A DNA stretch of 61,309 nt, the filler included, from Hausera hauseri (taxonomy: Eukaryota): the NCBI GenBank assembly GCA_046269625.1. It is 7 parts of 7 records of this genome, joined end to end, with 100 filler letters (N's around TTAATTAATTAA, not from the genome) between each part and the next. Parts side by side here need not be neighbours in the genome. Positions count along the whole stretch, not along the records: positions 38,069 to 48,601 come from JBJURY010172194.1; 6 more parts are not named here. One strand, written 5' to 3'. Positions 24,008 through 60,917 of the stretch are shown here, one piece after another. Position 1 is the stretch's first letter; each line of letters opens with the position of its first letter. The notes under the pieces were generated by a model. That model made no database searches. It was not told the DNA's origin and saw only the letters and a program-made list of their open reading frames with translations. The position numbers and the translations under genes are program-made.

Positions 24008-24024
24008 TGGTGCCCCGAGTGAGG
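24008..24024 (+). promoter_or_regulatory. Primer-binding site, elongator tRNA-Met-like
   Basis: TGGTGCCCCGAGTGAGG, one mismatch to the complement of the vertebrate elongator tRNA-Met 3' end as I recall it (TGGTGCCCCGTGTGAGG). Confidence 0.75.
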
Positions 24025-24160: not shown

Positions 24161-25018
24161 ATGTCAAACTCAGGGCTAGGACAAAGCCTAGAAAGCAATT
24201 TATCAGGAATCATGGTGCTTCCAATGGACAAATACGAGGCTAAACTGGATCAGGACTATGCAGAATTTATCATGCAGTACGAGATGTACTCAGAGAGTTT
24301 CGGTTGGACAGACGAGCTCAGGATGAAGAGGCTTCCTTTGCATTTGAAAGGAATAGCACTTAGTGCTTATACACAAATAAAAGATGACGAAGATAAAGCT
24401 GATTGGGCTAGTCTTAAGGACGCTCTTGAGGAAAGGCTCTTAGTAGACCCGTCAGGAAAGGGTCGAATTGGAGAATTCAATAGAAGGCGTCAAAGGAAAG
24501 GCGAAACCGTGCAAGAGTTTGCATGTGCCCTTCAGAAATTGGCTCAGAGAGCTTATGTAGATGAAGATATAAGGCAAGATGCCCTCCTGGCTCAATTCTG
24601 TTATGGAGTTAATAAAGAAATACAGAATTATATTATCGTCGCTGACCCGGATACCTACAAAGAAGCTGTTAACAAGGCAAGGAAAATTGAAATGAACTAC
24701 GAGAGACTTGAAAGCGCGAAAAGGCCCTTTAAGAATGATGAAAAGAAACAGAAAAATTTTCAACAAAAGAAAAGTTTTTCAAAACCATTTCAGAAGCATC
24801 AAAATCAACCAGAGCAACAGACTCAGAAAAAAGTTACATGGCAAAAGCCACCTCAGAATAACTGGCAGAATCAACCCCAAAAATCTGCAATGAGAAAACC
24901 CCCAATTAATCAGGATGGACAACCGTTGTGTTTCGCGCGTCAAAGATATGGACACATGGCTCGTTCCTGTCTTGGTCAAGGACAGTCAAGTCAAAAGAAA
25001 AAAAATTCGATATCGTAG
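24161..25018 (+). CDS. gag: Gag (retrotransposon capsid plus degenerate CCHC knuckle)
   Basis: LPLHLKGIALSAY, RRQRKGETVQEFACALQKLA, AQFCYG, CFARQRYGHMARSC (second Cys to Arg). Confidence 0.9.
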   Translation: MSNSGLGQSLESNLSGIMVLPMDKYEAKLDQDYAEFIMQYEMYSESFGWTDELRMKRLPLHLKGIALSAYTQIKDDEDKADWASLKDALEERLLVDPSGKGRIGEFNRRRQRKGETVQEFACALQKLAQRAYVDEDIRQDALLAQFCYGVNKEIQNYIIVADPDTYKEAVNKARKIEMNYERLESAKRPFKNDEKKQKNFQQKKSFSKPFQKHQNQPEQQTQKKVTWQKPPQNNWQNQPQKSAMRKPPINQDGQPLCFARQRYGHMARSCLGQGQSSQKKKNSIS

Positions 25019-25480: not shown

Positions 25481-26008
25481 GTGGATTTGGATCAAGATGG
25501 TAAAGAAATAGTTCGGAAAATATTAAACTACACTAATCAAGAATTAATCGATGGCACCCAATTTAAACAAGATATCTCAATGTTGTTGTCACCAACAGTT
25601 AGGCATCAACAGTTTGCTAATTTATTGGATTTGTTATTGATGTATGCCGCTGGCACAAGCCCATACCAGAATGTCGTACGGTATATAATTTATCGTTATG
25701 CAGACCGGGTAAGAATAGTCGGAGAAAATCCCGAAGTAATGGTTACCCTCAAACAATATAATCAAGATTTTCAGATTTTTAGAATGAAATCGCTAGACAC
25801 AATATCTATGTTAAAGTACCGAATTAATGAAATAAATCAACCTCAAGGTAAACTAGAACTACGCTTTTATGGACAAACGCTGATAGATTATGAAACCTTG
25901 TACGAAGTAGGAATTTGGGAAAACCGGTATAATCCTATATGTATTTCTTATAGGCAATCAGAACAAGAGGTAATTGATGAGATTATAACTGATGTTAGGC
26001 GAAAATAA
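25481..26008 (+). CDS. Post-gag polyprotein fragment containing a ubiquitin-like domain (~25739-25950)
   Basis: MVTLKQ...DTISMLKYRI...LELRFYGQTLIDYETLYEVGI versus ubiquitin DTIENVKAKI...[20 protein letters not shown]. Confidence 0.7.
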   Translation: MDLDQDGKEIVRKILNYTNQELIDGTQFKQDISMLLSPTVRHQQFANLLDLLLMYAAGTSPYQNVVRYIIYRYADRVRIVGENPEVMVTLKQYNQDFQIFRMKSLDTISMLKYRINEINQPQGKLELRFYGQTLIDYETLYEVGIWENRYNPICISYRQSEQEVIDEIITDVRRK

Positions 26009-26980
26009 ATACAAGGCTGAACATCAATATCAGACTCAACCGGTAGAGGTAGGAATGAATATACCTATATCGGAACAGGTACAAACAGATAAAAAAGGTC
26101 GTGGAAGACCAAAAGGAACAACAAAACTGTATCAATTAAAAGGCAGAAAAGCTCGAGATGATGAAGTTGTTCGAAGATTATTAACAACGGAAGATGAATA
26201 CGACGTAGACAATGTATCGTTGACAACATTGTTGCAAACTTTGTTAGCACGAATGCATAATGCTTTTGTCGAATTTAATACGAACTTACAGATACCAGAG
26301 CCATTAATGCAAAGTATCAAAAATGAAATCGCAAAGATTAGTGAACAGTTTGCAGACATCCCTACAGATGAGAGGATAAATGAAATTCAAGAGAGGGATA
26401 TCTTATCAAGAATGATGGGAACGGGTATATCTCGAAATAAAATTATAACAGCCATATCTTACCTCTTATACAAAATAATGGTGATGAATGGTGAAAATCC
26501 AAACCAAGAAGAAATAGAGAGAAACATTGAGATTGCTACAAGGGCATTGAAAACTAATGTAGAAGGATGGGTGAAATGTAGAGGAGGATGGATTACCAGT
26601 CTGGTTCATGCCGCAATACATGAATCGGTTCCAACTATACAACGAACAGAACATTTTTCACCTCAACAACCAGAGAGGCAACGAAATATACAACCAGACC
26701 TTGACTTATCATGGTTAACTAAAGTTATACCTATTCTCCTCTTGTTTAGCCTTATGCCAAAAGCACTTTCAATCATTGCTTATGACTGTAGTCAAGCTAA
26801 GGAAGGACCAATATATTCCTTACTGGACCTGGAGAAATGTCCGTTTGCTAATCCGGCTTTATTAACAACAAAAACGGATAAGACATATTATGTTTATCAA
26901 GAATCGGAGTTTGTGAAAACAAAAGTGAAAGAATGTTTTGTCAGGAAGAATCACTTCCATTTCATTTGTGGATACTGGTA
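25992..26980 (+). CDS. env: AT-hook and helical region, signal peptide, and N-terminus of a chuvirus-like glycoprotein (partial)
   Basis: KKGRGRPKG; VIPILLLFSLMPKALS followed by IIAYDC...YSLLDLEKC...VYQ...ECFV...FICG, the characteristic start of chuviral-type glycoproteins. Confidence 0.8.
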
Positions 26981-30580: not shown

Positions 30581-33271
30581 TTTGATTGTTGTTATTAGAA
30601 TATGATTTATGAAAATAATTTATTTAGAAACAAATAATTAAATATTAATATTTATGTTAGGGTTTGTTAACAATTAAGTCCAACAATAAAAATCCAAAGT
30701 TAGCACTCAGAATAATTAACAAAAAAATTTTCCAACTCAAATCAAAATTTTAAATGCAGCACAGCTTATTCTACCCAATCCAAATACAACATAACATTTA
30801 ATTTCGCAATTTTAAAATACTAATTTTTTCCAACTATTCGACAGAAATAATTTCCTCCAGCAGTTCAACCCAAAAGAGCAATTCGACATACAAAATGAAA
30901 TAGACTTTGATATTTATTCTGTAATTCAAAATAATTCAGTGCAGATAAAATAAAACTGACTGTGTGAATATTATTGTTATCAATAATAAATCCTTGATTG
31001 TATAAATGTCTTCTTCTTCTGATATTGTTAAACGCCTTGATGCGTATTCCGTCTATTTTCTGTTTCATGTACATTATTGTTAACCAAAAAGTGGCAAAAT
31101 AACTAATTAAGGGTTAATTAATAACCTTTTTGAAAGTATCTGATTTAATTTCAGATTATCTGATTGTTTGATACTCATTGTTCAATGTGTAGAAAAATAC
31201 GAGGATATTAGTTGTGGATTAAAGAAGTCCCAGAATGTTGGAGAACTTATTCTAATATTTGCAAATTATAAAAGCATAAAGAAAGAGGCATAAATGGTCA
31301 AAGTTTTAACTTAATGAAATTATATTTTGTACTTTGTTGACCGTAGATCTATGAGAAAAAGTAATTAAAAATATTGATGAGTCAGAAATTTCAAATACTT
31401 AATGCCAAATTGAATGATCAAGATGACATGGAGTGTTGTTTCTTTTTTAAAATTTAAATTTGTGATATTGTAACCTGAATTATTAAGTTGACATCAAGTG
31501 CCATTTGGATTTTGAAAATTGAAAATAACAATAGATAAAATGGTAGTTGAAGTTTGGAAAATCCAAACTTGAAGTATTGTTGAAATTTTGAAAATGTCAA
31601 TTAGAGTACCATCGAATTTGGGCAATCCAAAAACGGTAGTATATAAACTGCCAGTAATTGTAGATAACAACCATAATACATACTGAAAACTCTGATAGAA
31701 TTTTAATGAAGTTTTGGTTAATTTTCTTTGTTATTTTATTTTTGTCATTTTTGTTGTTGAAAATGAACGATGTTATAAATTAAATCAACAAGCCGCTGTT
31801 TTTATTCATTTGTAAATTTCGTTATTAATAATAAATATTTTTAAATTGTGAATTATAAATCATTTCTATTTTTAATTCAATTAATGCTTTAGACAAGTGA
31901 AGTATTTCAAAAGATTCAGCAAATATACTGATTAAATATCAAATGTGATTCATAGAAGAAGAAATTGAATGATAACATACATGAAAGGATGTGAATATTT
32001 TACGTTCATAAATTAAAAGGAAACGAGGTATATTGATGAATAGGCGCAGGTAACTTTGTTACCGAACCGCCATGAACCCATGAGAATATTAATTTTCAAC
32101 TTTTATGTTGGATATAATTAAACCAATATGGTGATATCCAAACATAAAATTGGTGGCCAAGATAGGGACATCCTCATTTGAATCATTTGGCAAGATTGGA
32201 AATTATTTATCATTATTGATAATGTGAGTGAAGATTACACAATAAATCAAATATCAAGACAACACTGACTGGAGAAAAGGAAGGAAAATTTTGTCAGAAG
32301 TACAAAATTCCTGAGCATAATGGGAAGACTTGAACAAGTGCTGAAAATCTCCAATCGCCTTATTTTGGCTTCCTTGCAAAATCTTTTCCCATATTGTTTG
32401 TCAAAATTATATTTTACATGTCTCACTGACTATTTGTTGTAAACCTCTGTGTGGCAGTAATAGATGGTAGATATTTTTGTAAAATAAATTCAAGTCCATT
32501 TTTTTCACAATTTTTAATTATTTATGGTGAATACGTAATCATATATTTTTATGTTGCAGTTTTGATGGGGAACGACATTAGAGGAGTAAAGAAAAAAGAT
32601 TTCTTAATTTCAAATTTCCTGAGGAATTTCGACGAACTTCTTAGCTTGTTGTATTTAAACTACAGTTCCGAATGCATCTACTCATTATATATACATGATA
32701 TACATATGGAAAATTATTTAGAAAAACGTTTATTATGAATAACTTGTTGCAGAATTAAAACTTCATTCATTCCATTCCTGGAAAGTACTGTGGAGTAGCT
32801 TTATGAAAGTCTTCTTGATGTTTGTGAAGAAAGTAATTCATTCAACCATTAGTCATTGGTATGGATTGAGACCCAAGTTGCAGGTTTCATAGTACTGTTG
32901 TCGGATTCCAGAACATAATATATTGATGTTTTGGATGATTTCCATTTGTTTTCATTCGAATGAAATAATTTTGACAGACTTTAACCGAATCACATATATT
33001 TTTTGACAAACAACATCGAGATAGTGCAGAATTTTTCGACAGGTCTTCGGCGGTTATACACAGAAATTCGTCAGGCAACATTTTCGTTTGTTGCAGTTAT
33101 GCGTGAGTATTTTAAAAACAGCATCACAACCGTTTATCATGCACGCATTTTTTCATCTTCAATTCCATATTTCTGTCCATAACGAGCAAGTCAGTGGTGC
33201 CCAAATTTCCATATTTCGACACAACTCATGTCGTTCCTATTGTGAGGTTTTCGGCTCTTGCGCCGGTGGGT

Positions 33272-34799: not shown

Positions 34800-37700
34800 C
34801 GCGCAGCCGCATCATGCGCATCAGGCCCATCAGGTGCATCAGGCATATCAGGCGCAGCGGCTCCATCAAAGTGAAAAAGACAGCGGCCAGTTGACGCGGC
34901 AGCATTAAACAGGAAATTCCGCAGATGTGTTATTGATGCAACTGACCAAACAACTATCAAGGAGTTCCTGGAATGTACAAAGGAAGAAACAGAGGGAATT
35001 CTCCAGGACAACATAGCTGAACTCAAGGCCCTTAAGGTTAATATGAAACTGGAGGCTGCATACATCAATGTTGATGACGAAAAATCCAATAGGGCTTTCA
35101 AAACCAAAAATAGGCCCATATTAGAAAACGCCAATATAACAGAGTGGCTGCATGAAGAGCATGCGAAGCTGATCCGTGAAGCTGAGGAGAGTCAGGATAA
35201 GAAGAGTGGATGGACTCTGGCAACCATCAAGCGATTGCTTGTGTATGTTTACAAGTACTCTCAAATGCAGGGCAGTTCTTATATTCAGCTTCCGGAGTGG
35301 ATCGCTAATAAAAAAGCGTGTCAATGTCCATAATAATGACAACATGTGTTTTATGTATGCCGTTTTATGTAAACTCATACGGAATCAAAAACATGCAGAA
35401 GATGGAATTTGGCTATATAATGATCTGAAGCACAACTATGACTTCTAATGTATTAAGTTCCCACCATCCATACATGAAGTATAGAAGTTCAGTCGAATCA
35501 ACAATATATCCATCAACATTATTGAATTGGATTATGAGGACAAATTTTATCCTCTGCAGATATATGATACTGAATTGGAGATCATAGGGATCTGCTCCTA
35601 CTAGACGATGAAGAAAAAAACCATTATGTGTGGATCAAGAACTTTGAGCGTCTAGTCAGATCCCAAATTACGAAACACACAAGAATCGAAATATGCAAAC
35701 AATGCTTTTCCCATTTCAGTGGTGATGCAGCAGTGGAGACGCTTGCAGAGCACAAGATGTACTTCAACAACAATTACTGTATTAGGCCAGAATTTTCCAA
35801 AGAGGATTACACTGAATTCAAGGAGTTCGAGAAGAAGCTCAAGGTCCCAATAGTTATCTATTGCGACTTTGAGGCTATTCAGCGTCCAGTTCAGACATGC
35901 ACTCCCAGTCCTCAATATAGCAGCACAACGGCATACCAATATCATGAACTCTTATCATATTGTGTGTATGCCAAAGGACTGGACATTAACCATTTCTATT
36001 CAGAGGTCCAGGTGCAGCAGCACATTTCATAAAACGACTTGAAGACGTGGCTTATAAGATTGGAGATTTGCAGTAGCAGCATAAAAATAATGTGAGCATG
36101 TCGAAGCAGCAAGAAGAAGAATGGCGCAAGGCAACAACATGTTACTTGTGCTCAAAATCATTCACTAAGGATAATTATAAAGTCAAGGATCATTGTCATT
36201 TTACAGATGCTATTGAGGGACAGCATGCAACAACTGCAATCTACGCTGCAAAACATGTACATATGTGCCTGTGGTGTTCCATTATCTCAGTGGCCATGAT
36301 TCCCATTTCATAGTCCGAGAATTAGGCAGCATTGAAGGAAACATTGAAGTGATCCCCAACAGTGAGGAAAACTACATACCTTTACTAAGCATGTGGGCAA
36401 AATCAGGCTTCACTACATAGACAGTTTCCGTTTCATGTCGTCTTCACTGGATAGTTTAGTGAAGAACCTCCTTGCAGAAGAACTCGAGAAGACGAAGCGG
36501 TTCTTCCCCACTGCATTTGACCTAGTCAATAGGAAAGGCGTGTTTCCTTATCACTACATAACCTCATGGGGAACACTGGACGAGACCTCATTGCCGGCCA
36601 AGAAGGACTTTTGCAATATCCTCTCTGATTACGATATCAGTAATGCTGACTACCAGCATGCTTAAAATGTCTGGCAGGCATTCCAATGCCAAACAATAGG
36701 GGAATACAGTGATATTTATCTCAAGACGGACGTGCTGCTGTTGACAGACGTCTTTCAGAGTTTCAGGAATATCACAATGAAGAGTCATGCATTGGATCAG
36801 GCTCATTTCTTCACGGCTTCAGGGATGAGCTGGGCAGCAATGCTAAGATATACTGGTGTTAGTCTGCAGATCATTAAGGATTACAACATTATCCTTATGG
36901 TCGAGAGAGGCATTCGAGGCGGAATATGCCAGGCCATTCACCGGTATATTTAGGCCAGTAACAAGTACATGGCCGAATACGACTCATCCAAGGAATCCTC
37001 ATATATGTCATACCTGGATGCCAACAACTTGTGCGTATGGGCAATGAGCGTCCCATTGTTATATAATAACTTTAAATGGGTCGAGAATCCTGAAAACATT
37101 CCTATATTGGACCTGGATCCCGCTGGAGATACGGAATATATACTGGAGGTGGATATGGAATATCCGGCTTCCATCCATGCAAGGCATCAACAGCTGCCAT
37201 TCCTCCCGGAGAGCAGGCCTCCGCCCCGTGGAAAGCATAGAAAGCTGCTCTGTCATCTGGGTAATAGGGAGAGGTATGTAGTTTACTACATCAATCTCCC
37301 GCAGGCAGTTAGACATGGAATTTGTATTACTAAGATCCATAGAGCCCTGCAGTTCAGCTAGTCCATGTGGCTGCAGCCCTACATAGATCTCAATACCAAG
37401 ATGCGAACTAATGCTAAGAACGATTTTTAGAAGGACCAGTTCAAGCTTTACAACAACTCGGTCTTTGACAAGACCATGGAGAATATCCGGAACAGGATCA
37501 ACATTGAAGTGGTATGTGACTGGAATCGAGCAAAGAAGCTTATTGCCAAGCCCAACTTCCACAGCAGCATCATATATGCTGAGAACTTGGTCAGCATCCA
37601 TATATTGGAAACTGCGTTGGTATTCAACAAGCCCATATATGTGGGTATGGCAATCCTTGACCTGTCAAAGACCCTGATGTATCATTTCTACTACGACATC

Positions 37701-37968
37701 ATGGTCCCCATGTTCAAGTCCATGCAGCTGATGTATATGGATTCTGATAGTTTCATCTATCAGATCCATACAGATTATATTTGTGAGGACTTTTCCCAGT
37801 TAACCCAACATATGGATACCGCGGTCTATCCGAAAAATCATCCCATCTATTCAGTTGCCAATAAGAAAATCCTAGAGAAATTTAAAGACAAGGTAAATGG
37901 AGCAATTATCTCGAGATTTGTAGCTCTCAGGTCCAAAATGTATGCTCTAGACATATGTGGTCAGATCA
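34800..37968 (+). pseudogene. polB: Second Polinton pPolB, heavily disrupted, truncated at the contig end
   Basis: Collinear with copy 1: KKSGWTL, DNMCF, YCDFE, CYLC...DHCH, RKGVFPY, YLDANNL, MENIRNR, YMDSDS, KFKD. Confidence 0.95.
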
Positions 37969-38068: not shown

Positions 38069-38426
38069 ACTACTGGGTGTGTCCCGATTTCACGCATTCC
38101 TACGATGTTTGACATGGGTATTTCTAAAGTTCGACAATGCTATCGATGCGATATCCAGTTATGATATATCCATATAAACAATGTTCTATCTCGGCCTAAA
38201 CAAGTTTGATGTCTCTACCTCTTGAGAGTGTTTCCTTACGAATTCCTGTCGTATCATAATATTTCTCGCGAACGCGTTATCTCGGACTGATAATAGTACA
38301 ATATACTTCTGTTCCGTTCGTTTCTCGAACTGAGACTTCCATTGGGATCCTTTGTGCATCATCTCCTTCTCCACAATTGATTGCTATGATTCTGGTATTT
38401 CTGGCATCTTTCACTAGTCTATACGA

Positions 38427-38846
38427 TTACAAGAATGTGTCCAAATCCTTTTCTGACGTTACCTTGAACATTAATTTTATATGAAGGGCGGCTACTCTGA
38501 ATTCTAATTCATAATGCTGTAAATCTTTGCTACGTAAGCTAAGAGTACTGAATGTATATTGTCTTCCGTTGTTTGTGTTCCATTCTTGGTCTTTGAACCG
38601 ATAGTATGTCTCACCATCCGCCAGGTGGATATAAATATTCTGATGATGTTCGTATGTTTGGGCATCCTTGTCTTCTCTCATGGCGTAAAGGTAAACAATC
38701 CTATTTTCTTCCGTTATACCCTTTAAATTGTTAGGAATTTTACTGGTCTGATCATACTTCACGAAGGTGTTCTCATGCAAGTTGTTATTTATTTCTCTAT
38801 ATATTGATTTAGAATTAGGGAGAAGGATGGTAGCGTAATTCTGCAA
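38427..38846 (-). CDS. Hypothetical accessory ORF fragment 3' of the second membrane gene
   Basis: 139-aa open frame, co-oriented; splice-acceptor-like TTTATTTTTTAG at ~38979-38990. Confidence 0.4.
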   Translation of the reverse strand: MQNYATILLPNSKSIYREINNNLHENTFVKYDQTSKIPNNLKGITEENRIVYLYAMREDKDAQTYEHHQNIYIHLADGETYYRFKDQEWNTNNGRQYTFSTLSLRSKDLQHYELEFRVAALHIKLMFKVTSEKDLDTFL

Positions 38847-39074
38847 GAACTCGTCAATACTAAGTCGGCGTTTTCGTCATTTATCGATACTACATCGTTC
38901 TCGTTCTTGGATAGATCGTGGTTCGTCGATCCTAGATCATCCGGTATCCGTTTTCGTATTTCTCTCTTTACTCATCGGTCTAAAAAATAAACAGTAAGGG
39001 TTAATCTTACAACAAAGGATGGTTTTAAAATGAAACCAATTCTTTGTTAGATGATAGAATAACCCGATCTGTAA

Positions 39075-40510
39075 TTGTCAGGTTATTTTATCATATACGT
39101 ATTCTTGGGGTTCCAATACCTTTAGTTCCCATTCTAAATTTTTAGGACGCTTAGGACGACAATTTTTGGCAACTAATCGAAAAATCGCAATTAATATAAT
39201 GAGAACAAACGTTGATAGTATTCCAACGAATACGATTGGTAAGGTGGTCAATCTTAGTGGTGCTTGCGTGGTAACTAGAGTTGTGATTTCATTATCTATA
39301 TTTTCATATAATGGCGATCCTGTGCGGATTTCGTCTAGGGTACGTACTTTAATTGTTTGGCTTTGTTTATATTCTCTGCATATACTTACACTATGTATTC
39401 AGATTGTGGTTTTAGCAAATTGCATTCTGTCTGATAAATATTTTTAAGCAACGTTACAATTTGACCATTATATGTTGTTCAGCAATTTATATGTATATCG
39501 TAATTTTGTTTTTCTTCCACAAAGAACACAATTCTAAGTCGATATTTTGAATATGTAATAGGTACGCTTTCTAATTCCTTTTTAGTTATATTGTTCGACG
39601 TAACTGTTCTGGTAGTGGGACTAACTTTAGTGGTCGACTCTTCGGTCGTTGTTCCCACTGGAATTTTCCAAATTCAGTTTTCTGGATAGTAAGTTCGTAA
39701 CTGTGTACTCTGTTTATCGGGTCGTACCTCGTATAAGTCAAATTTTATCTTGAACTCCTGGTTCACGGGTATTTTACAACATGGATGTTGCACGCTTGCG
39801 TGAATAGAACAATATTCTATCTTAGGGGTCGGGCTTTTTATTGCTTCGAATGTGATGCTAATTTCTCGATTGACAGTTAGCTCTGTCCGGGCGTCTACTT
39901 GGATACATTGTTTTTCCCTGTTTACAGAGATTCTCTGGGTATTTTCGTCTAATAGCCTTATATCTGGGTCGGTGGATCGTAGCATTTCGTCAGGTTTTAT
40001 TCCATGATGTCTGTTCCATGCAGGAATGACTAATTGGAATTGTGGCTTTGTTTCGATATAAACTTCGGATGAGTCCGGTAGGTATAGGCGATAAGTAAGA
40101 TTGTAAGTTCGTCCAAAATCTATGTCGCAACACTGTGTATAATTTCCAGGTTCAAAGTCACAGTTTTTTACTTCTTGTGTCGTTACATCGTTTGAGACAA
40201 TTTGAAATCGTCCAAAATTATGGTGTGGCCTCCAAGCCTTAAATCCGATACATACGGAGTTTGGCGAAAAATAATGGATTGTCATTGATTGCAATAATTT
40301 AGTATCTTCTTGTTTTTGGATCTCCTCAGATGTTAATTCTTTTCTTTCCGGGATGTTTTTCGTCTTTACTCCGATTTTCCGTATTCCATATACGTCTCCT
40401 AGTGTAGACTCTTCATTCCACCATTGGGTTTGTGTCCTCGGAGTATAAGGAGCAATCAGTGACAGGGCTAGAACTATTTGAATGTATAATATTGGTCTGA
40501 CGATTATTGA
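39075..40510 (-). pseudogene. Type-I membrane protein in frame with the integrase C-terminus
   Basis: Hydrophobic signal PILYIQIVLALSLIA; two similar Cys-rich beta-type domains; Thr-rich stalk; TM LPIVFVGILSTFVLIILIAIF then basic RLVAKNCRPKRPK (~39140-39245). Frame is disrupted after 39674. Confidence 0.65.
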
Positions 40511-40559
40511 AGAAATCTTTGTTTCGTGTCTGCGTAAATTATAATGCTTGTTAGGTCGT

Positions 40560-41620
40560 ATTTCTGTTTTAACAACTAGTTGTATTGACACTACTTCTTT
40601 CCCGTTTTTGTTGATGTACACCTTAGTTGGTGTAGTCCTAACGATTTCATACGGTCCTCTGCCTGTACATGTCAATGTTAAAGACGTACCTTTTTTAGCT
40701 ACCGGATAATGTAAATAAACCCAATCTCCACTTTAAATCATGCGGTTTTGCTTTCTTATCATATTTCTTCTTAAATTGTTCTTGGTATCCATTAGATATT
40801 TTTTTGGTGATTTTACAACATTTTTGTAACCGTATCTGTAGTATTTCTGCAAAATTTTGTTCTAAATCCTCTGTGATATTTGTATATGGTATCATTCCTA
40901 AATCTGTGGGCAGTACTGCTTCCCGCCCGTACATCATGAAGAACGGTGTAAGTCCTGTCGCTGGATGTGGTGTAGTATTGATGGCGAATTGGGTACCTTC
41001 CAGAAATTCATCCCAATCCTTCTGGTCTTTTGCCACTACTGTGGATAGTATGCGTATGACGGTAGCATTCATTCGTTCGACCATCCCGTTACACTGGGGG
41101 TGATATGCAGTAGTGGTTAATCGTTCGATCTCAAATAGCTTGGTGATTTTTTCGAAAAGTTCACTCGTAAAGTTTTTTCCTCGATCTGTCAATATTTGAT
41201 CTGGCGGTCCATATCTGTAGATGATTTTCCTAACCACAGCTTCAGCTAGGGTTTTTGCTTTCTGGTCAATTAGCGCTATCAGTTCGACAAAATGAGTTAG
41301 TCGATCAATAGAGGTTAAGATATTTTTATTGTTTTTATGGCCTGTATGAAGCGGTCCTACGATATCCATTGACATGGCCTGCATAGGCCTATCCCGTACG
41401 TTAATTGGCTTTAACTCGGCCATGTAATTTTTTATCTTTTGTTTAGTCGCACATACTTTACAGGCACTCACCTAATTTTTTACATTGATATACATACTAG
41501 GCCAAAAATATTTATTTAGTATCCTTTCTAATGTCTTCTTCCAGCACGTGTCTGGCTAAATATGAATCATGTTCCGACATTAACACTTCGGTTTGTAACT
41601 CTTTTGGAATAACTATCAGT
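40560..41620 (-). pseudogene. int: Gypsy integrase
   Basis: H...H...CKVC, MDIVGPL, TDRGKNF, GMVERMN, and GPY motif (GRGPYEIV). Confidence 0.95.
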
Positions 41621-41899
41621 TTCCTTCCTTTTCGTTTGTAATACAAAATGTCTTCCTTGTTTTTATCATTTAAGACGCATTATTTATGTCCATGTCTGTG
41701 TAAATGTTTCTTTAATTGTCGTCCGTTTGGTATAATGTCTCTTTTGGCAAATTCTATAATCTGTTGGATGACTTTATCCTTTCTTTGCTCGGTATAGATT
41801 TTAATTGCTTGATCCATCGTTAGGGCGCGTTGGCGATCTATTACTTCTTCAAGTCGACTTTTCCTCATTACGGTAATTGCGCTTGTTTTGGTTTTTAAC

Positions 41900-43172
41900 C
41901 TTGATAATGCGTCGGCATCTACATGTTTATTTCCTGGCTTATACTGGAATTCGATGTTATATTTAGAGATTTCTTCGATTCATCTATTAAGTCTACATGT
42001 CGGGTTATTTGCTCGGAATTTTAGAGTCCTGATGGCCTTGTGATCAGTGACAATTATAATATTCTGTCCGTATACATAGACGTTGAAGTGTAGAAGTGCC
42101 TCTTTCACGGCTAGAGTTTCTAATTCGGTGACGGAATAATTTTTCTCAGCCTTCTTCAGGGAACGTCCTCCATAAACAATTGGGTGTTCTAATTCTTCAT
42201 TTTCTCTTTTCTGCGCCAATTCATATCCGATACTTTCTTTGCTGGCGTCTGTCTTGATTATAAAGGGTAAGCTAAAATCTGGATATCGTAAAACAGGTTC
42301 GCTTGTTAATATCTTCATCTCGTCGAAAGCTCTTTGTTCGACATCCGTCCATTTCAATTTTATTCCATTTTTAAGGAGACGATATAAAGGTGCATTGATT
42401 TTTGAGTTATCTGGCACATAGGTGACAAAATATCCGCAGAGTCCTAGCCAGTGCCTTAACTCTTTGGTTCTGTGGTTTCATGCAATCTGATATTTTATTT
42501 AATAATCATTTATCCGGTTTTGGTCTTTCTTCTCTAATTATATGGCCAAGGTAAGATACTGCGTTTTGAGCCCATTTACATTTCTTCAGATTTAATTTCA
42601 ATCCGGCTTGTTCCAATCGCATCAGCGTGTGTTCAATATTCTTCAAGTGTTCCTCTTCTGTTTTTGATGCTATAATTACATCGTCTAAGTATGCGAAGGC
42701 ATGGTCCAGTCCCATTAGCATCTGGCCCAGTAGTGACACCGAACGGCATGACATTAAATTCATACACTCCATCGTGTATTTCAAATGCCGTCTTATATCG
42801 ATCCTCATCCTCTATCTCTACTTGCCAGTATCCAGATTGTAAGTCCAGAGTAGTGAACCATTTTTCTCCCGAAAGTCTTTCCAAAGCCTCCTTTAATGAT
42901 GGTAAGGGGAAGGAATCCTTCATCATAAGGTTATTCAATGCTCTGTAGTCAATACGAAATCGATGTTTTGTACCTTTCTTTTTAACCATGAGGATCGGTG
43001 AATACCAAGATCTGTAACTGGGTCTAATTATATCGGCCTTAAGCATCCGTTCGACTTCCTTTGTTATCTCGGATCTCAGTGAATGCGGCGGGAGATACCA
43101 TTTAGGTATCTTCTGATCTTCAAGATCTATTTCTTCATTTGAACCGGGCTTTTTCTTAAGTGGAATAGTCAA
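41900..43172 (-). pseudogene. pol: Gypsy reverse transcriptase and RNase H
   Basis: IDYRALN, DSFPLP, LDLQSGYWQV, MPFG, AYLDDVII; TDASKESIG, YSVTELETLAV, TDHKAI. Confidence 0.95.
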
Positions 43173-43322
43173 TCTTAATGCTTTAGCCCTACCATATCCT
43201 CATCGTCTTTAGCGATCACTGATTTATAACGGCACAACAGTTCATAAAATCGACAATAAGATTCGGGAGAAAATTTAGTTTCTACATGAGGTGGAAATTC
43301 GGCATACTTATAAGGCTTTTCT

Positions 43323-43990
43323 TCAAGTTATAGACGATACCCTATAAGTATTTCCTAGAGTAGTATAAGCATGAAGCTTGACGGGAGTCGATGCATTATT
43401 TGCCATTCTGATCGGTATACGACCGGAGTCTACTCTTGTTAGTATGTTACTAAGTATTATATTCGGATTTAGTGTCTCTTTTGGTTCGAAATATACCGGT
43501 TGATCGTTGTCTTGCTGAATCTGCGCATAGATTATTAACTCTGTTTTCGGCGGAATGCTTTTGTTTACAGGCATCCATACCTCTCCAAATTTCCTTTTTT
43601 TGGCATTTTTCACACTTTTATTTGGTTCGATTTTTATTAATTTTCCTGTTTGTAAGTCGATTGCTATGTTTGGTAACCTTTTCAGTAGATCACATCCTAA
43701 GACTACGTCGTCGGTTAATTGTTCCATAACTGCAAATTCATGACGGAAAATTTGTCCAACTATTTGGACTGCTGGATTTTATTTAAACATCGGTTTCGAC
43801 ATTTGACCAAAAGCTCCTGTACTCCCTGGATCTTTTGTGGATGGTGGATATAATTGTCCTCTTAACGATTGAGGTATCGAATCGTTTTTAATGTAAACCA
43901 TTTTAGACCCTGTATCGATTAAGGCATAAACTTCCCAATCTTCGATAATGACTTTGGCCAAGGGTCTTCCTTCTATCACCGTTCCGAAAC
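43323..43990 (-). pseudogene. Aspartic protease plus PR-RT linker domain
   Basis: YALIDTGS and DVVLGCDLL. Confidence 0.9.
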
Positions 43991-44639
43991 AGCTTGATGC
44001 ATCCTTTGGGCGTTTAGTCGCCGATATCTTGTGTACATTGATTCGGATTTCTCGGGAGGATATTATGTCCTCTGCCAGTTGCTTTAACTCTCCATTTGGG
44101 TATAATTCATTGTTTTTTAGTTCTTCCTCTTCATGAGTACTGATTAATGGTTCTCGGTTCTTAGTGTGCGGTTCTTTGTTCCACAAGGTTCTTAACCTTG
44201 AGTTTTCCCAGACAGGCGATTTAGTCTCTATTTTTCGAGATTCTCTCGGGGAATACAACATCCTGAGATCATCCCCAGGCTGTCGGTAACACATTTTCCG
44301 TAAGACTCCGTAACGTTTCGTTCCTTCGTAAGGGTCTTCTACCTTAATTGTCCTTTTATAGATTTCCGTTTGATATGAACTCATTGATCGTTTGTCACAG
44401 TCTTCATAGACGGGCGCAGTAGGAGGTAGCATAGACAATGATGCTTTAATGAGAGTATGTCTTATGTCTATTTATCCCCGAAAGTGCTTCTCCTCCCTTA
44501 GGCTCGTCATCATCTGAATTATTTCTTCGTGTGTTAGGTTTCGTAAATTTCCGCTTGTACAAGAACATAGGCCTTCCCTTTTGTTTACGATTGTAATTCC
44601 CGACATGGCGTTCTAGGTCCGATTTCCATCTATTTTCTT

Positions 44640-46470
44640 CATATGCTTTTAAGAACTTTCAAAAGGGCGTTATTATTGCAGTCAATATTTTACATGAAAA
44701 TCCAGTCAATGTAAATATTTCGTACCCACTAATTACTGCTTGGATGACTGCCTTGATCATTTGAATTAGTAAATATATTGCCAACAATCCAGATGCTGCT
44801 TGTCCGAAAATTAAAAGTCTTCCCCAAATTTTGTAAAGTATTTCTGTGGTTACTCGTTGGTAATGGTTTACACCAAGTAAGGATTCCCATTTAGCCTGAT
44901 ATCGTGTATCGTCTACTACCGATGCCATGGCTCGGTTTAGTTCATATGTTCGTTGTCGCAGAAAGCGAAGAATTGTCTGAAGGCTTCGATTTCCTTAGGC
45001 CTGTATATGCCTTTCGACGAGGTATCTTGAAATTTATCGTCCGTAATTTCTTTCGCAAGATTTGTTCTTGTTAGTTTATTTGGAGCGGTAGTAATACCTC
45101 CGTTTGGTAAACTAATCCAGTCTGTTTCACGCCGTCTAAACATAGGTTCTCCTAAGCTTGCCTTACAATCTTTAAGAATGGTTGGCTGGGTTGCATTATC
45201 CAATAATACTCTCTTCAACGGTGTAGCTGACCTGGGAGTATTCTGATAAATAACAGGGAGTTCCTGAATGCAACATTTTTCCTCGACGTTGATAGGTACA
45301 TCTCTCTTCGTATTCGTAGGTCAACAGTACCTCGCCCGTGACCCGACCGAAAATTTCTCTCAGGAATTGTTGGAGACGCCAATTCCGGGTTGGCGTATAT
45401 AAGGGCCAATTTCGTCCTCATGATCTCCGTATCTAATTTGCAGTCATTCGTTATCATTTTGTGATGTAACTCCGTTATTCCGACTTATCTTTTGTAATAA
45501 AAGTAATCATCTCTGTTCTTTAAATAATCCTCAATCCGGATATCCTGTGTTTCCAACTTATAGGTCTTCGCATTTATCTCGGTTTCGGCGATAAAGAATG
45601 CCTCACAGATAGTAGCGAACATTACTATGTCACAAGGGGAAATCATCTCCTTTTTAATAAATTTCAGTCCATGCTGATCCGAGACTAATATAGTGGGTGT
45701 AGAGTGTCCCGATAAGTCTTCACTTGTCCTTGAGTTGGTATCAGATTTATTCACATATAGCTTTCCGGTAGTTTCACTAAACTTCAGTTCCTTAATTTTA
45801 ATAAAATTACAACTTCTTCCAGAGAGAGGTTCCCATATTATAACAGAACTTCTAAAAGCAAAGGTTCGGTCTGGTAAATGACACTTTTGATTCTCGGTGT
45901 ATAACTTGGTGACACTATGGAACATTATTTTCTGTGATCGCATCTCCGATTCGTAGAAATCCACGACTACCACGTTTGCTTGTAATCCTTTTCCGGTGTC
46001 GTATTCCGCTTCGTAACAATGTCTGCTATGCATATCTAACCTTCCGACCATTACTTTGTATGCCCTAATTATCTCTCCTGGTTGCATTTCTAATTCCATA
46101 TTGTCCCATTGTACTCTTCCGGTCTCCTTAGCCTGTCTGCAGTGCTGGCGTTCTAAGTTCATTGAGATTAGAGGAGTTCTTGGTTTGATTATTGAGGAAT
46201 GTCCGTGTACTAACCCATAGTGAGAAATGCTACGAGATCGTCTGAGCATACATTTAATTCCGTCTAACGATATCAATTCTTGTTGTTGGTACAGGAAGTA
46301 ATTTTTCTCTCTCGTTTCCAACTTGTGCGGCTTGGCATCTTCGCATACCTCTAAATCCGTTAGGGAATATCTCTGCCCTAGTTTAAATTTATCTCAATCG
46401 TAGACGGTAACAGAGCCTATTTGCTTTATTAGCATTATCAAGGTGAGGAGGTTAATTAACCAAAATGATT
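44640..46470 (-). pseudogene. env: Chuvirus-like (class III, gB-like) envelope glycoprotein, fragmented
   Basis: Signal peptide then VTVYD*...YSLTDLEVC...YFLYQ...IKCML; GIYRPKEIEAFRQF; C-terminal WGRLLIFGQAASGLLAIYLLIQMIKAVIQAVISGY...GFSCKILTAI membrane region. Confidence 0.85.
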
Positions 46471-47130
46471 CACTTTTCCGGAGGCTAATATCCGTGGTTG
46501 TCAAATTTCGTAACATATCGTCGAGTCTATTACTATTACTGGTCCGTTTGTCTTCTTCCTTGTCAAATAGTCTTGACCAAGTTACTTTGTGGGGCAGCTT
46601 CTTCGCTGTTCTTCGTGCTAAGCTTATAGCTCTGTTGATTTCATTCTGTCGATTAGGGATTATTTTGATATTTAAATATAGTAATACTTTTCTTAATTCT
46701 TCGTGGGTGTTTTCCACAATGATCTTTTCGATTACCGCTTCGTTAGTTAAGTTAATTTTTAATAGTTTAAAACGTGAACTTCTCATCATTCTAGCTGCAT
46801 TATATATTACTTTTTTCTTTATCATCTAGTGTGTAACCCCGAAAGCTCGAATAATTTACAATTCGTATCAAGTTCTTCACTAATTCATTTAATTCTTCAT
46901 TGTCGGTACTGAAAGTCGGAATCGACATTTGTCTCAATGCCTAACCAATTCTCCATTATAGTCAACCCCCTCTTGCATCTTTTTAGGCCTACCGACTGGA
47001 TGTTTCTATCTTTGGACATTGGCTGTTACTTCACTCAATGGTACTAAATTCTTGACGTATTGTTCCTTATCCTCATCCGTCTGTAAATACTTGAAATACA
47101 TTGCAGCATCTCGGACTCCCATAATTTGTC

Positions 47131-47784
47131 CTACGCACTGTTCTGTTTGGCCTTCTGCATGGCTTCTACTTTGGTATGTTCATTGGCTATTATTACTACT
47201 ATTCGATTTGTTTCATTGGGAATAATCCCGACATCTATTAATTGTTCTAAATCGTCGAGTATTTTACCTATAAAGTAAAATCTATAATTTAGCTCGTTTG
47301 TTCCACCATTATTTAATAACCATTCTTTTATATCCCTCACATTGAAATATGTAGTGAACTCGCATTCTTTCTCGTCCATCCACTCGGGTGTTACTATTAC
47401 TTTCATTGCCACCTCAGGTTTAGCCCTCACGATTTTAGCGTATTTCCTTATCGGAAATTTCGGCACCGTACTACAAATTGTATTTTCAGTAGATAATTTA
47501 GTTAAGGTCGGAATAAGTTGTCCCAACTTACTCTCAGTAATGTTTACGTTAATTAGTTCAATTAAATCCCTTTCGGTTAGCTCTGAGTCTAGGCACATCT
47601 CTACATTGAATCTCCTGTTCTGCGGACACATTTCTATTTCTTTTAGCTGTACTGGGGTCACACGATTTTCGGCCGTTATCGCATCCAAGTACGCATCCAA
47701 TTCCGGTTTATTCCCAACATCGGGAAGTCCATAGCCTATTAAGTTTGTATTCGTTCTTTGCACATTTTCTCTAATTTCTTTCAA
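47131..47784 (-). CDS. Polyprotein fragment with ubiquitin-like domain (~47190-47406)
   Basis: MKVIV...NVRDIKEWL...YRFYFIGKILDDLEQLIDVGI; homologous to 25739-25950. Confidence 0.7.
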   Translation of the reverse strand: MKEIRENVQRTNTNLIGYGLPDVGNKPELDAYLDAITAENRVTPVQLKEIEMCPQNRRFNVEMCLDSELTERDLIELINVNITESKLGQLIPTLTKLSTENTICSTVPKFPIRKYAKIVRAKPEVAMKVIVTPEWMDEKECEFTTYFNVRDIKEWLLNNGGTNELNYRFYFIGKILDDLEQLIDVGIIPNETNRIVVIIANEHTKVEAMQKAKQNSA

Positions 47785-48601
47785 TCATGGTTGTATTTCT
47801 TTTATCTGTGTAGGTCGGAAACCTATTCCGTTTCCGCAGGCATACTGAATCGTTTTCAGTAATTCGCCTAATTCAATAAAATCAATCAATCCCTTTTGGT
47901 GATAATCAATTAGCTCAATAATTACTTCTCTTTGCCATCTTTGTACAAATTCTCACTTATTTTTAATTTCTGATTCCGTAAAAGCGTATTTATTCCCATA
48001 GCTTTCGAACTCTTTTGACATTTCGTCTAGCCTTGTTGCCCTTTGTTTTGTTCTCTTGCACATTTCTTCTACTTGCCGTAATTTGGGCAATAACTGCCTT
48101 ATCTTCTCATCATTAATCTCCGTCATTTCTACAAATACGTAGGCTAGCCCATACATCTCCTTTATGACTTTTGAGTCGGGATACATTGCATCCAACAATT
48201 TCTTTATGAACTAAGATTCCGCAAAACTAAGATGTTGATCGTTTCTGATTTTTGTTAACTCGGTATGAAAGTTCTGATCCGTACCGTCTATCCATTCGTG
48301 TGGTTTCTGCACGAATTTTACTGCTTCCGTTAGAGCTACTCTATATTCTGGACAAATAGCTAGGGTTTTGTTATCCTGGATTGAAATATCGTCGATAGGT
48401 TTATCTGTTAGATGTTGGACTCCTTTTAGTCGGATGTTTCTTAATCTTCTATAAAAATTGCAAGTTATATTTCGCTTTTCCGTAAAGTTCGTCTCTCGAT
48501 CATTTTATAAATCTCTTCCAATATCATTACTTCTTGCTTCTTCTTCATAAAGTATAGCTGTCGTAGTGCTTCAAATTGAGTTCGTATATCTATTTCTGCT
48601 C

Positions 48602-49430: not shown

Positions 49431-50369
49431 CACAATATTGTTTTGTTTCCAGGTAATTCAAAATGTATTGTATTAAGTTATTAATTTAGTTTGACAGGTT
49501 TTTTTTAGTTTGTAATGCAATATTTAGGTGAATTGATTTGAGTTATAATTGGAAAAGGAAGTTGCCGTTGTTGTATTTTTTAAAGACCTTTAAGTTAATG
49601 TAAAAAATATTAAGGAAATTATGATATTGGGTAATGTGTTATTGTAAGGTTAATTTTAGAGAGTAGAGTTTTTATTTTAATAAAAATGTTCAGATTAAGT
49701 TTTTATTTTATAAGAACATATTTGAGTTGACACAAACTGTTTAGTTTTGTGTCTTGCTGAATAGTTATGTAAATCTGTTTACTTAAATATTCAATGTAGA
49801 TGTGTTATATTCAAGGTTTTACACTGTTATTATCTTGTGAATGTAATAATGTAATAGGTATGTAAATGTTTATTGTGGTAAGGTTCCAAGTTAGTCTGAA
49901 TTGTTTCATTTAAGAGTCTTTTATGGAATATTTAGGTGAACTGATTGGAGTTAAAATTTGAAAAGGAAATTGCTGTTTTTGTCTATTTTTAAGATATTTC
50001 AGTTTATTTAAGTTAAGAAAGATATTATGAAAATGGGTAATGTATTACAATTAGGGTAACATTAGAGGTTATAGGTGTTATTGAAAACAAAGTCAGGTTA
50101 AGTTGTTATTTTTTAAGATTTGTGAAGACATGGTTTAGTTTTGTGTCTTCTTAAATAGTTAGGTAAATCTGTTAATGTAAATATTGTATTTAGATTTGTT
50201 ATATTAAACATTTCACACTAAATTATTATGTTGTAAATGCAATAATATAAAAAGGTATACCAATGTTTAAATGGACTACAAATTTATTAACACAAATACA
50301 AAAAGAATCAAATCTTTATTCCCCCCAAAACCCCACATAAAAAAAAACACATATATAAAAAACGCCAAT

Positions 50370-53300
50370 CACACATCTTGTGGAGTGGTTTGTAGTTCGT
50401 CTAATCCCTGTGTGTCAAGGGTTTCTTTGGTCCTGAAAATGATTTCATACACAGCAAATTAAAAAACATATGTATTACATTTTAGTACCATGAAGTAACC
50501 ATCTAAATTGAATACGATGCAGTACAAACGTATAACTGTATATTTTGCATTAATAAAAGTGAGAATAAGACAAAACTGATTAGGTTTTTTAATGTTGATG
50601 TATGTTATTTTCTGAAATGTTTAATCTAAGAACTGTAAATGAATTTTAAAAACAAATGTATTGAATTGTATTTGATATTTTTTGGTGTTATTGTTAAATA
50701 TCAATTCAAATGTGTTCACTTTAATATTTTATGTAATTTCTTGTTTAAAATATTTTATAGTAAGTTATTATCTTGGAAAGTAAATAAAGATTTGGAAATC
50801 TGAAATTATTCTAGATATTTATAATCCTGTTTGAAAGTACAATATTATATTCTAAAAAACTAGGTTTATAAATGTTTATTGTGTTTATCATATAGTAAGT
50901 TATTTTAAAATCTTGTATAAGAATTTTAGTTTGAAATTGGATGCGTATTTGAATGATTTTTTTTAGAACGAAAATGGTTAATTTTGTTTTTGTCTTGTTT
51001 TTAATTAATGAATAATGATCAGTTATTAATGTTTTTTAAAGGTTTTAGAGAGGGATTAATAGCATATCTATAAAGTGGTTATTAGTATATAGTAATAATA
51101 TTGAAATTTAATTCAATTGAGTTTATTTGTATTGTGCTTAATCACAAGAAATTTTTTGGAGGGTATTTTACAGGAGTATTTACATACATTGAAAAGCCAA
51201 TTAGTAAAGTTGTTTCTGTAAAGAGCATCATTTTATTATCAGAAATAACTAAAAAAAATTCTAAATGAAATAATAAACACTACGATTACAATAGGCCTTC
51301 GCAGCGCTTAGCTGCTCTGGCTTAAAAATAAACAAGGACAGTTACCCATCTTGTGAGGTGATTGGGAGTTTGTCCAATCCTTTTTCGTCAAGGTTTTGGG
51401 TTATTCAAAAAAATATTTGATATAGAATAAATAAAGAATATATATATTTATTACATTTTTTATATCATGAAGCAATAATCTAAAGTAAACACATAAAAAT
51501 TATTTGATGTAGAACCAATTAAAAAATATTCATTACATTTTTTATGTCATTAAGCAATAATGTAAATTAATCACATGCTTTGGTGAAAATGAATATCTGC
51601 ATATTCTATATTAATAAAAGCAAGAAAGAGGCTAAATAGATGTTTTTTTTAATATTAATTTAAGTCTGTTCATTTAATTTTGTTATTTACAGATGTTATT
51701 TAAACATTAGTGAAGGAGTTATTTCTTTTTTAGTATAAGTCTTTGTAAGTTCATTATTTGAACATATAATATTGTTTATATATACTTGTAATGTAGTGAT
51801 AAAGTACAATCTTATATGTGAAGGGAATATATCCTAAAAAAGATTAGTGTTTAAGAATTCTTGATTTAGTTTGAAAAGTTTAATATAAGAACTCTAAAAT
51901 GAATTTAAAAATAAATGTATTTAACTGTATTTGGTAAGTATTTTTTAATTGTTAAACAGTTATTCCAATTTGTTCTTGTAAATATGTAATTGACATTTAT
52001 AGTTTTAAATTTTTTATAGTAAGTTGTTCTGTTGAAAATTTTAAAAATATATTTGAAAACTTAATATTTTAATATAAAATTATTTTAGATATTTGTAATT
52101 TAGTAATAAAGTACAATGTTATATTTTAAAGGAATTTGTTTACGAATGATTACTGTGTTCATAATTGAGTAAGTTATTTAGAAAAATGGAATCTAAGAGC
52201 TTTTGTTTAAATTTGGATGTGCATGTATTTGAATGATTATTTGAAAGGAAATGGTTCATTTTGTGTGTTTTTTAATTAATGAATAATGAATGACCAGTTA
52301 TTAATCATTTATAAAGTTCTTTGAGATATTTATATTTAGCATATTTATAAAGCATTTTTTAGCATCTCATGATAATGAAATTCAATTCAATTGACTGTAT
52401 GTGAATAGTGCTAAATCACATCAAAGTTGTTTTAAGGAATTGTACAGGATTATTGACATATCTCAAAAAGCCAATTAGGTTCTGTAAATGTCCCCCCTCA
52501 CCCACCCCCAAATAAAGGACAATTACCCATCTTGTGAAGTGATTGGGAGTTCGTTCAATCCGTCTTCATCAATGTTTTGGTTTGTTCTAAAAATGATATG
52601 ATATATACCAAATTAAAAAATATATTTATTACATTTTTATACCATTAAGGAATAATTTAAATTAAACACCCATGCTTTTGTGAAAATGAATCTGTGCATA
52701 TTCTGTATTAATAAAAGTGATAAAGAGAGAAAATAGATTATTTTTTGACATATTAATTTGTCTGTTCATTTATATTTGTTCTTTAGAGATGTTATATGAA
52801 ACATTTGTAAATAAGTTAGTACTTTCTAAGTATAAGTTTTAGTAAATCTATTCTTTTAACATATACTATTGTTTATATATAATTGTAATGTAGTGGTAAA
52901 GTACAATATTATATCTTAAGGAAATAGTAAAAAAAGTGTATTGTGTTTTGGAATTATTGAATTATTCTGAAATGTTCAATGTATGAACTGTAAATGAATT
53001 AAAAAAAACAAATGTATTTAATTGTATTAATTAAATTTTTGTAATTGCTAAATAGAGATTCTAATGTGTTTCCTATAATTTTTCATCAAGATTTATAGTT
53101 TTAAATATTTTATAGTAAGTTGTTATCTTAAAACTTTAATAGATTTGGAAACCTAATCTTTTACTATTAAATTATTCTAGACATTTATAATCCAGTGATA
53201 AAGTATAAGATTATATCCTAAAGGAATAGGTTTACGAATGTTTATTGTGTTTTTAACTTAGTAACTTATTTAGAAAACTGGAATGTAAGAGTTTTTGTTT

Positions 53301-53705
53301 AAATCTGGATGTACATGGATTGGAATGCTTATTTTGAAAGAAAATGGTTGATTTTGTGTTTGTTTGTTGTTTAATTAATGAATAATGCCCAGTTATGAAT
53401 GATGTATAAAGTTTTTATAGAATGATTTATAGCATATTCATAAAGTATTTATGTGTATGTAATAATAATGAAATGCATTTCAATTGAGTTTATTTGTATA
53501 GCGCCAAATAATCACAAAGTGGTTTCATGGAATTACATAGAGAAGCTAATTAGTAAAGTTGTCTATCTAAGGAATATTATTTTATTCCAACAAACACCAC
53601 AAAAATAAAACATAAATTAATTAAAAACAGACTATTACCCATCTTGTGGAGTGTTTGGTGATTCATTGCACTCCATGTTTTTCCAGTCCTCCTCTTGTTT
53701 GGAAA
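50370..53705 (-). repeat. Four diverged ~1.0-1.2-kb tandem units, each with a 60-nt exon-like core
   Basis: Cores at 50373-50432, 51346-51405, 52527-52586, ~53638-53700; flanking AT-rich sequence is also homologous. Confidence 0.75.
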
Positions 53706-60915: not shown

Positions 60916-60917
60916 GT

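Follow-up and report, generated by a model that had tools for sequence, protein, structure and literature searches.

In the planarian element Burro, Gag is followed by Ubi2/SUMO-like and BCL-2 domains, an in-frame env and the protease, and PMC6431247 calls this element the first case of env between gag and pol. GAG-ENV-POL elements with an HSV/gB-type env (HSV, herpes simplex virus) have been described from Nematoda, Bryozoa and Platyhelminthes (PMC13524379), where the nematode case, a Metavirus that captured an RNA-virus glycoprotein and has its env before pol, is credited to Sacco 2022. A chuvirus glycoprotein from the same superfamily as the one studied here occurs in mosquito BEL/Pao elements (Dezordi 2020, cited via PMC13524379), and bdelloid rotifer long terminal repeat (LTR) elements possess a third open reading frame (ORF3) after pol, coding for small transmembrane proteins and DEDDy exonucleases (PMC5408684). 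Here, we analyzed a stretch of 61,309 nucleotides from Hausera hauseri (the window), two contigs of which hold Ty3/gypsy elements with a gB-type fusion glycoprotein. The cited sources were available in part, and what we say of them, including what they do not mention, applies to those parts.

The window consists of seven contigs, unrelated to each other and joined by N spacers. Contig 6 (38069-48601) carries its element on the minus strand and contig 3 (21882-26980) on the plus strand. Other repeats and one host gene are present in neighbouring contigs, and the source is hence a repeat-rich eukaryote genome. Judging by likeness to planarian elements in the literature, a flatworm host seems likely. 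Given the domain order, the class III fold of the glycoprotein and relatives in which gag, env and pol share one unbroken frame, we consider it quite probable that contigs 3 and 6 hold broken copies of two Ty3/gypsy LTR families with a gB-type env between gag and pol, i.e., compact relatives of the Burro layout, whose intact forms probably produced enveloped particles out of a single long polyprotein. An earlier note on this DNA had treated them as two diverged copies of one element; they belong to two families. It had also expected the order and the extra domains to be new. However, the gag-env-pol layout and the upstream ubiquitin-like/Bcl-2 cargo are already published, the order with a gB-type env in PMC13524379 and the cargo for Burro in PMC6431247. 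The main text of PMC13524379 does not mention ubiquitin, Bcl-2, Burro, polyprotein, fibronectin or exonuclease, and Burro is not named in the available part of PMC8532177.

Domains and glycoprotein of the two elements

Contig 6 can be read end to end along a stop-poor path with about 12 frame switches; the opposite-strand frames contain 5-6% stops. On its minus strand follow, in this order, the ubiquitin-like module, signal segment, glycoprotein, transmembrane segment, protease (PR), reverse transcriptase (RT), RNase H (RH) and integrase (IN). Pfam, profiles and hydropathy thereby bear out the co-oriented set of the earlier note, apart from its AT-hook, for which we found by eye a basic core of non-canonical type. 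Protein relatives are numbered P0003 and so on; a HMMER search with the last 753 residues of P0003 gave 134 matches, of which 29, picked for length or upstream matches, were scanned. Exact motif coordinates were taken from alignments. The features of contig 6 are:

47134..48600, minus strand: N-terminal part of the polyprotein in decayed form (489 codons, 5 of them stops); the contig does not reach gag
47185..47571, minus strand: a helical domain and a ubiquitin-like domain (profile of P0003, P0007, P0012 and P0061, E 4e-10)
46979..47005, minus strand: AT-hook-like basic core, non-canonical, by eye
46500..46825, minus strand: helical bundle in the same place as the Bcl-2-like domain of contig 3 (generic helical matches, Z 5.9 at most)
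46403..46459, minus strand: internal signal segment ahead of env (hydropathy 1.78; helix 120-132 of the model)
44605..46402, minus strand: gB-type class III fusion glycoprotein (PF24664), broken by stops and two frame switches
44787-44731, minus strand: env transmembrane segment (hydropathy)
43674..43970, minus strand: aspartyl protease (PF00077, E 8e-6)
43330..43598, minus strand: conserved PR-RT spacer domain, in the place of Burro's dUTPase-like domain (best matches P0010, P0006 and P0031)
42428..43160, minus strand: reverse transcriptase with a frame switch inside (PF00078, E 3e-16)
42004..42351, minus strand: RNase H of Ty3/gypsy type (PF17919, E 2e-30; PF17917, E 5e-27)
40556..41540, minus strand: integrase core and C-terminal domain (PF00665, E 4e-14; PF18697, E 0.012)
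39082..40507, minus strand: second membrane module, in frame after the integrase (hydropathy, ORF continuity, fold model)
38085..38975, minus strand: further decayed ORF, whose last third (38420-38130) is weakly DEDD 3'-5' exonuclease-like

The first 340 codons of the N-terminal part matched no Pfam family, and the spacer domain gave no Pfam dUTPase match.

On the plus strand of contig 3, a primer binding site (PBS), gag, ubiquitin-like module, AT-hook, Bcl-2-like domain, signal segment and glycoprotein start follow each other:

24008..24019, plus strand: PBS, one base past the likely LTR right end (near-match to a tRNA end)
24161..25006, plus strand: gag capsid and decayed zinc knuckle (PF19259, E 0.002)
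25532..25957, plus strand: helical and ubiquitin-like module (PF00240, E 0.003; profiles of relatives)
26091..26117, plus strand: AT-hook motif, by eye, in a region 90% identical to P0003
26211..26606, plus strand: Bcl-2-like domain (PF00452, E 0.003, below the Pfam cut-off)
26724..26978, plus strand: signal segment (26724-26780) and, up to where the contig breaks off, the first 68 residues of a gB-type glycoprotein

The earlier note had read the same series, including an LTR, of which there is a single right end beside the PBS and no second copy; repeat-like cover begins at about 23750-23920. By eye, the PBS has one mismatch against the Met-CAU tRNA end tabulated in supplement 1 of PMC13524379. 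Additional support for gag came from PF00098 in P0003 and from profile A2, which matched the dArc2 capsid (E 8e-4). Missing from that note were the Bcl-2-like domain at 26211-26606 and the two ORFs after the integrase of contig 6 (40507-38085).

The glycoprotein of contig 6 is a class III fusogen of the gB/chuvirus type, as judged from its predicted fold, with the likeness to chuvirus G coming via the Pfam family. PF24664 (Monjiviricetes_fusion) matched three successive pieces (E 3e-16, 4e-7 and 1e-13). An AlphaFold model was calculated from 46825 to 45315, with X at two stops and a 93-row alignment. It covers the N-terminal two thirds of env and reached a predicted local distance difference test score (pLDDT) of 81.6. 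When compared with 48,161 PDB representatives, 12 of the 14 top rows were class III fusogens, with HSV gB at Z 10.0 (root-mean-square deviation 8.5, 295 aligned), further herpes gB matches at Z 9.4, 8.4 and 7.9, and rabies G, Chandipura G, Bourbon GP, Thogoto GP and baculovirus GP64 among the others. Moreover, the profile of the 93-row env alignment matched herpes gB in 34 of 35 PDB rows, albeit weakly (best E 0.03). Hydropathy places hydrophobic segments on both sides of the ectodomain, i.e., the signal at 46459-46403 and the transmembrane segment at 44787-44731. Contigs 3 and 6 have homologous glycoprotein starts (E 1e-8, 34% over 92 aa), as the earlier note had held from a few shared residues.

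With the HSV/gB-type errantiviruses of flatworms (Smed_errantivirus_1-6, C1a), the elements share order, env class and the plan of signal, ectodomain and anchor; the elements in PMC13524379 are intact, whereas the window copies are broken. By eye, none of the eight cysteines in the Smed domain I-II rows is missing from P0003, which also has several short motifs in common with them; of the eight cysteines that make up the flatworm C1a domain I-II pattern, six are present in the contig 6 env. Likewise by eye, contig 6 env (46402-45323, minus strand) is without two of the eight domain I-II cysteines of the P0003/Schmidtea rows. If these two form one bridge, their absence would mean a different bridge pattern and not decay.

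Gene order, relatives and upstream cargo

P0003 (1130 aa) is 53-86% identical to the contig 3 pieces and unbroken in a single frame, in the order capsid, zinc knuckle, ubiquitin-like domain, AT-hook, helical domain, signal and gB. Gag and env are therefore one polyprotein, of which contig 3 represents a frameshifted copy from the P0003 family. Env and protease were found within one protein in 11 of the 29 scanned relatives, env standing first in all 11. Supporting relatives with env in frame between gag and protease include P0003, P0007, P0015, P0022 and P0027. In P0022 and in P0196, one protein extends from gag via env as far as integrase, and the two hence have the whole gag-env-pol order of which the window gives gag-env in contig 3 and env-pol in contig 6. 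The order that the earlier note had pieced together from two contigs thus exists in unbroken proteins, as gag-env also in P0003. P0010 (HBK71150.1), an env-pol-membrane polyprotein, is labelled as Flavobacteriaceae metagenome-assembled genome; animal DNA that was binned with a bacterium is the likely explanation.

From env to integrase, contig 6 is collinear with P0006 and P0010, and its env also with P0004. It has no internal repeat longer than 33 nt and no internal LTR. We hence conclude, in agreement with the earlier note, that there is no nested insertion between env and protease. A chance nest, in which the glycoprotein of an endogenous chuvirus or the env of a BEL/Pao element had landed in front of an ordinary gypsy pol, might account for the fit of the glycoprotein to the Monjiviricetes family profile and for the pol trees, which do not join contig 6 to env-bearing elements. 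The trees for RT, RNase H and integrase, built with 24 env-less rows hand-picked from 73 matches and with a quick method for RNase H, gave contig 6 a long branch without resolved position, which falls outside those env-bearing groups that had support. Yet contig 6 shares its collinear arrangement with single-frame env-pol proteins, and its integrase, RT and PR-RT spacer domain find their best matches in env-bearing relatives. Contig 6 shows the PR-RT-RH-IN order of pol that marks Ty3/gypsy elements (Metaviridae), its RNase H and its integrase both being gypsy-type. In contrast to BEL/Pao elements, these two domains of contig 6 are of Ty3/gypsy type far above cut-off, and no Pao-type gag, RNase H or integrase family was among the Pfam matches of the contig 6 ORFs.

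The env tree speaks against a chance nest as well. It was calculated in a quick search from the 74 of 136 rows that cover at least 230 profile positions, and put contig 6 and P0003 inside a 27-row clade (Shimodaira-Hasegawa-like approximate likelihood ratio test, SH-aLRT, 94) that holds all 15 polyprotein-embedded envs among the 74 rows, apart from stand-alone glycoproteins of about 650 aa. A chance nest is thus very improbable and already largely refuted, and the old lineage proposed in the earlier note stands. P0111, P0117, P0131 and P0075 are gB-type glycoproteins that lack pol and carry an unassigned N-terminal extension of 330-590 residues; three of them form part of a separate clade in the env tree. 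Locus scans of viral contigs and of metagenome contigs gave no relatives, and a word-based search with the contig 6 env found none among 1321 candidates.

Upstream of env, the ubiquitin-like module was recognized in contig 6 with a profile from four relatives, contig 6 not being among them. Alignment A2, which takes in the contig 6 module, matched ubiquilin UBL structures with E 1e-5. AT-hook-like cores similar to that of contig 6 precede env in P0006, P0007, P0009 and P0061. In contig 3, the Bcl-2-like domain sits between the AT-hook and the signal segment; profile A1 matched Bcl-xL across the BH1-BH2 (Bcl-2 homology) region (E 3.5e-4). Atlas and single-sequence PDB searches with the helical domain of contig 3 were uninformative, i.e., the Bcl-2 signal came from profiles alone. 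Weak matches of the same kind occurred in four of the 29 scanned relatives. P0061 and P0012 have the ubiquitin-like domain followed by the Bcl-2-like one, as contig 3, and P0007 has the former without the latter.

Burro was compared by its published description, not by sequence. Burro/GYPSM1 resembles the elements found here in its zinc-knuckle Gag, ubiquitin-like and BCL2-like domains, an env in frame before the protease, a domain between PR and RT and a single polyprotein; also, its env gave matches to mononegavirus glycoproteins, as here. The ubiquitin-like domain upstream of env is found in both contigs, as in Burro; the BCL2-like domain before env is supported in contig 3 by Pfam and profiles and was not found in contig 6. 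In contrast to the Burro ORF of 4,873-5,140 aa, P0003 reaches env by residue 810; P0003 and contig 3 pass from gag to env in about 800 aa, a compact form without a giant ORF of the Burro type (about 4,900 aa). The MATH, BIR and ankyrin cargo of Burro was seen in neither contig 3 nor contig 6, where the 5' end of the element is missing in contig 6. The membrane protein after the integrase is a feature of contig 6 that the element description of Burro in PMC6431247 does not mention. P0231, a single frame of 4,844 aa, combines env with several protease-like domains, with ankyrin repeats and zinc fingers, and with pol plus a membrane module after the integrase; it is Burro-sized, with an order differing from Burro. 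Protease domains are repeated also in P0004, P0006, P0007, P0009 and P0027.

Between contig 3 and P0003, the capsid (147/166 residues, 89%), the Bcl-2-like domain (119/132, 90%) and the gB start (62/69, 90%) are much alike, in contrast to linkers with 41-58% identity. This pattern points to selection on the capsid, Bcl-2-like and gB-start domains of the contig 3 family. It also bears on whether the elements were intracellular retrotransposons that used env and the second membrane protein for membrane assembly or direct cell-to-cell passage, with no free particles. The elements are known here from DNA and protein sequence, and an in-frame fusion of env to Gag fits membrane assembly as well as entry. 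Nevertheless, the gB start is as conserved as the capsid, and relatives that are 24-39% alike keep env in full, with complete class III ectodomain and anchor. We therefore regard intracellular elements as the less probable case, although one with some weight.

The region after the integrase

The second membrane module of contig 6 comprises a signal (40507-40451), a beta-rich ectodomain with predicted FN3 domains (40321-39340), then a Ser/Thr-rich stretch and, after the transmembrane segment at 39236-39180, a short tail. Hydropathy values were 2.24 for the signal and 3.12 for the transmembrane segment. A stop-free ORF (39674-40732) covers the integrase end together with the second signal segment. 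The ectodomain of the module likely has fibronectin-III folds, as suggested by modelling: an Atlas search led to fibronectin-III proteins (0.82, a lead only), and a single-sequence model of low confidence (pLDDT 53.9) showed two beta sandwiches, for which roughly 40 of 50 rows in a fold search had FN3 titles (no Z reached 8, the best being 7.5). Sequence searches with Pfam and others gave no named family and no FN3 for the ectodomain. Alignment A4, used in part of the tail searches and comparisons, has its first row out of frame, which weakens those results.

Among the five env-pol relatives that reach the integrase end, four (P0006, P0010, P0021 and P0231) continue in frame with a signal-like segment, ectodomain and transmembrane segment; the fifth, P0196, ends at the integrase. 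Such a module could likewise stem from host membrane genes that were captured separately, or be host DNA lying beside the element, in which case it would be no single conserved feature. In that event one would understand why the ectodomains of contig 6, P0006, P0010 and P0021 show no significant sequence likeness and why P0196 lacks the module, and contig 6 has no 3' LTR to mark the element's end. Summed cover by run X1 over 39125-40884 is also lower than over most of env and pol. X1 contains thousands of diverged short contigs spread over the coding length of both families; as possibly the window's own source, it lends no independent support, and its cover speaks for repeat families, not for linkage or activity. 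On the other hand, contig 6 and four unbroken proteins all have the module in frame with the integrase. Moreover, a cysteine-leucine-proline-tyrosine pattern was found only in the tails of P0006, P0010 and P0231 among 328,408 residues, and its one occurrence in the window lies in the tail of contig 6; the pattern is post hoc, having been drawn from these tails. We therefore think separate captures or adjacent host DNA somewhat unlikely.

The dissimilar ectodomains and the end of P0196 at the integrase also weigh against contigs 3 and 6 as remains of particle-forming Ty3/gypsy families with one polyprotein, as do the following points. On no contig of the window is gag joined to pol, and contig 6 is without gag and both LTRs. 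Both copies contain stops and frame switches, which concern these copies and not their families, and hence do not demonstrate activity. Starting from an env query and from single proteins, our set of relatives favours one-frame elements, and the contig 6 pol query retrieved 73 long proteins of which one has the env family; the placement of contig 6 in the pol trees belongs here, too. As for the cargo, the Bcl-2-like match of contig 3 is below the Pfam cut-off, and neither the Bcl-2-like profile nor the fold search found Bcl-2 likeness in contig 6. Finally, membrane topology was derived from hydropathy alone.

The ORF at the end of contig 6 is decayed, cut by the contig end and without Pfam or NCBIfam match; three of its seven weak PDB matches were PolC exonuclease, ISG20L2 and DnaQ (E 0.2-0.35). 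In the rotifer elements of PMC5408684 extra ORFs replace env, whereas contig 6 has a membrane module and an exonuclease-like ORF besides its gB env; fibronectin is not mentioned in that paper. Literature searches found no exonuclease-like ORF after the integrase described for this element group, nor a fibronectin-type protein in this position for these elements, which Grohme 2018, Sacco 2022, Repbase or the eLife figures may hold. The post-integrase membrane module, with its likely fold and a proposed function, is the remaining novelty of the contig 6 element.

Neighbouring contigs and a proposed route of assembly

Contig 1 contains a 1066-codon ORF (5881-9081, plus strand) without Pfam match, by eye a protein-primed family B DNA polymerase of the Polinton/adintovirus type, of which contig 5 has a decayed homolog (34875-37968, plus strand; 58% over 467 aa). 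Decayed frames in contig 2 (13500-19300, minus strand) look by eye like parts of a Polinton-like module, namely a packaging ATPase, an integrase and pieces resembling capsid and cysteine protease. Contig 1 also has a second gypsy pol in decayed form (1-2470, minus strand; gag, protease, RT, RNase H), which is weakly like the contig 6 RT. The uninterrupted 278-codon ORF at 29783-30619 (minus strand) belongs to the CSN8/PSMD8/EIF3K family (E 3e-27) and is likely an intronless host proteasome subunit gene or a retrocopy. Contig 7 is AT-rich (49700-53550, 60400-61309), with degenerate repeats about 1.1-1.3 kb apart and a 128-nt tandem repeat at its end.

For intact forms of the two families we propose the following route. 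The chain would begin with Gag in the cytosol, carrying ubiquitin-like and AT-hook cargo and, in some families, also a Bcl-2-like domain, the latter presumably blunting host cell death. The internal signal would pass gB into the endoplasmic reticulum, the Gag precursor staying membrane-anchored after cleavage, and the env transmembrane segment would bring the chain back to the cytosol for PR-RT-RH-IN. Past the integrase, the second signal would export the fibronectin-type domains, and the last transmembrane segment would anchor them. Release of the parts by signal peptidase and the element's own protease would yield Gag anchored in the membrane with its regulatory cargo, gB as a trimer, the enzymes and the second surface protein. 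Capsid, fusogen and enzymes would arise in equal numbers and come together at a single membrane, from which particles would bud with both surface proteins.

Herpesvirus gB-type fusogens depend on separate receptor-binding partners, and by this analogy attachment would be the most likely task of the second membrane protein. A lineage of invertebrate gypsy proviruses might have produced a two-part entry machine from one polyprotein, with a gB fusogen between Gag and protease, an FN3 attachment protein after the integrase and Pol tethered between two anchors, in the way that herpesviruses split binding and fusion. We put this forward as a speculative idea that is more probably wrong than right.

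Since a fusogen between gag and pol and ubiquitin-like cargo are a known layout, the window adds one more decayed pair of families to it; the membrane module fused after the integrase is the part deserving attention. A single four-pass polyprotein would be an unusual coupling of capsid, envelope and enzymes in a retroelement. A second surface protein that changes fast would provide a testable answer to how the gB-type envs of retroelements find their cells.

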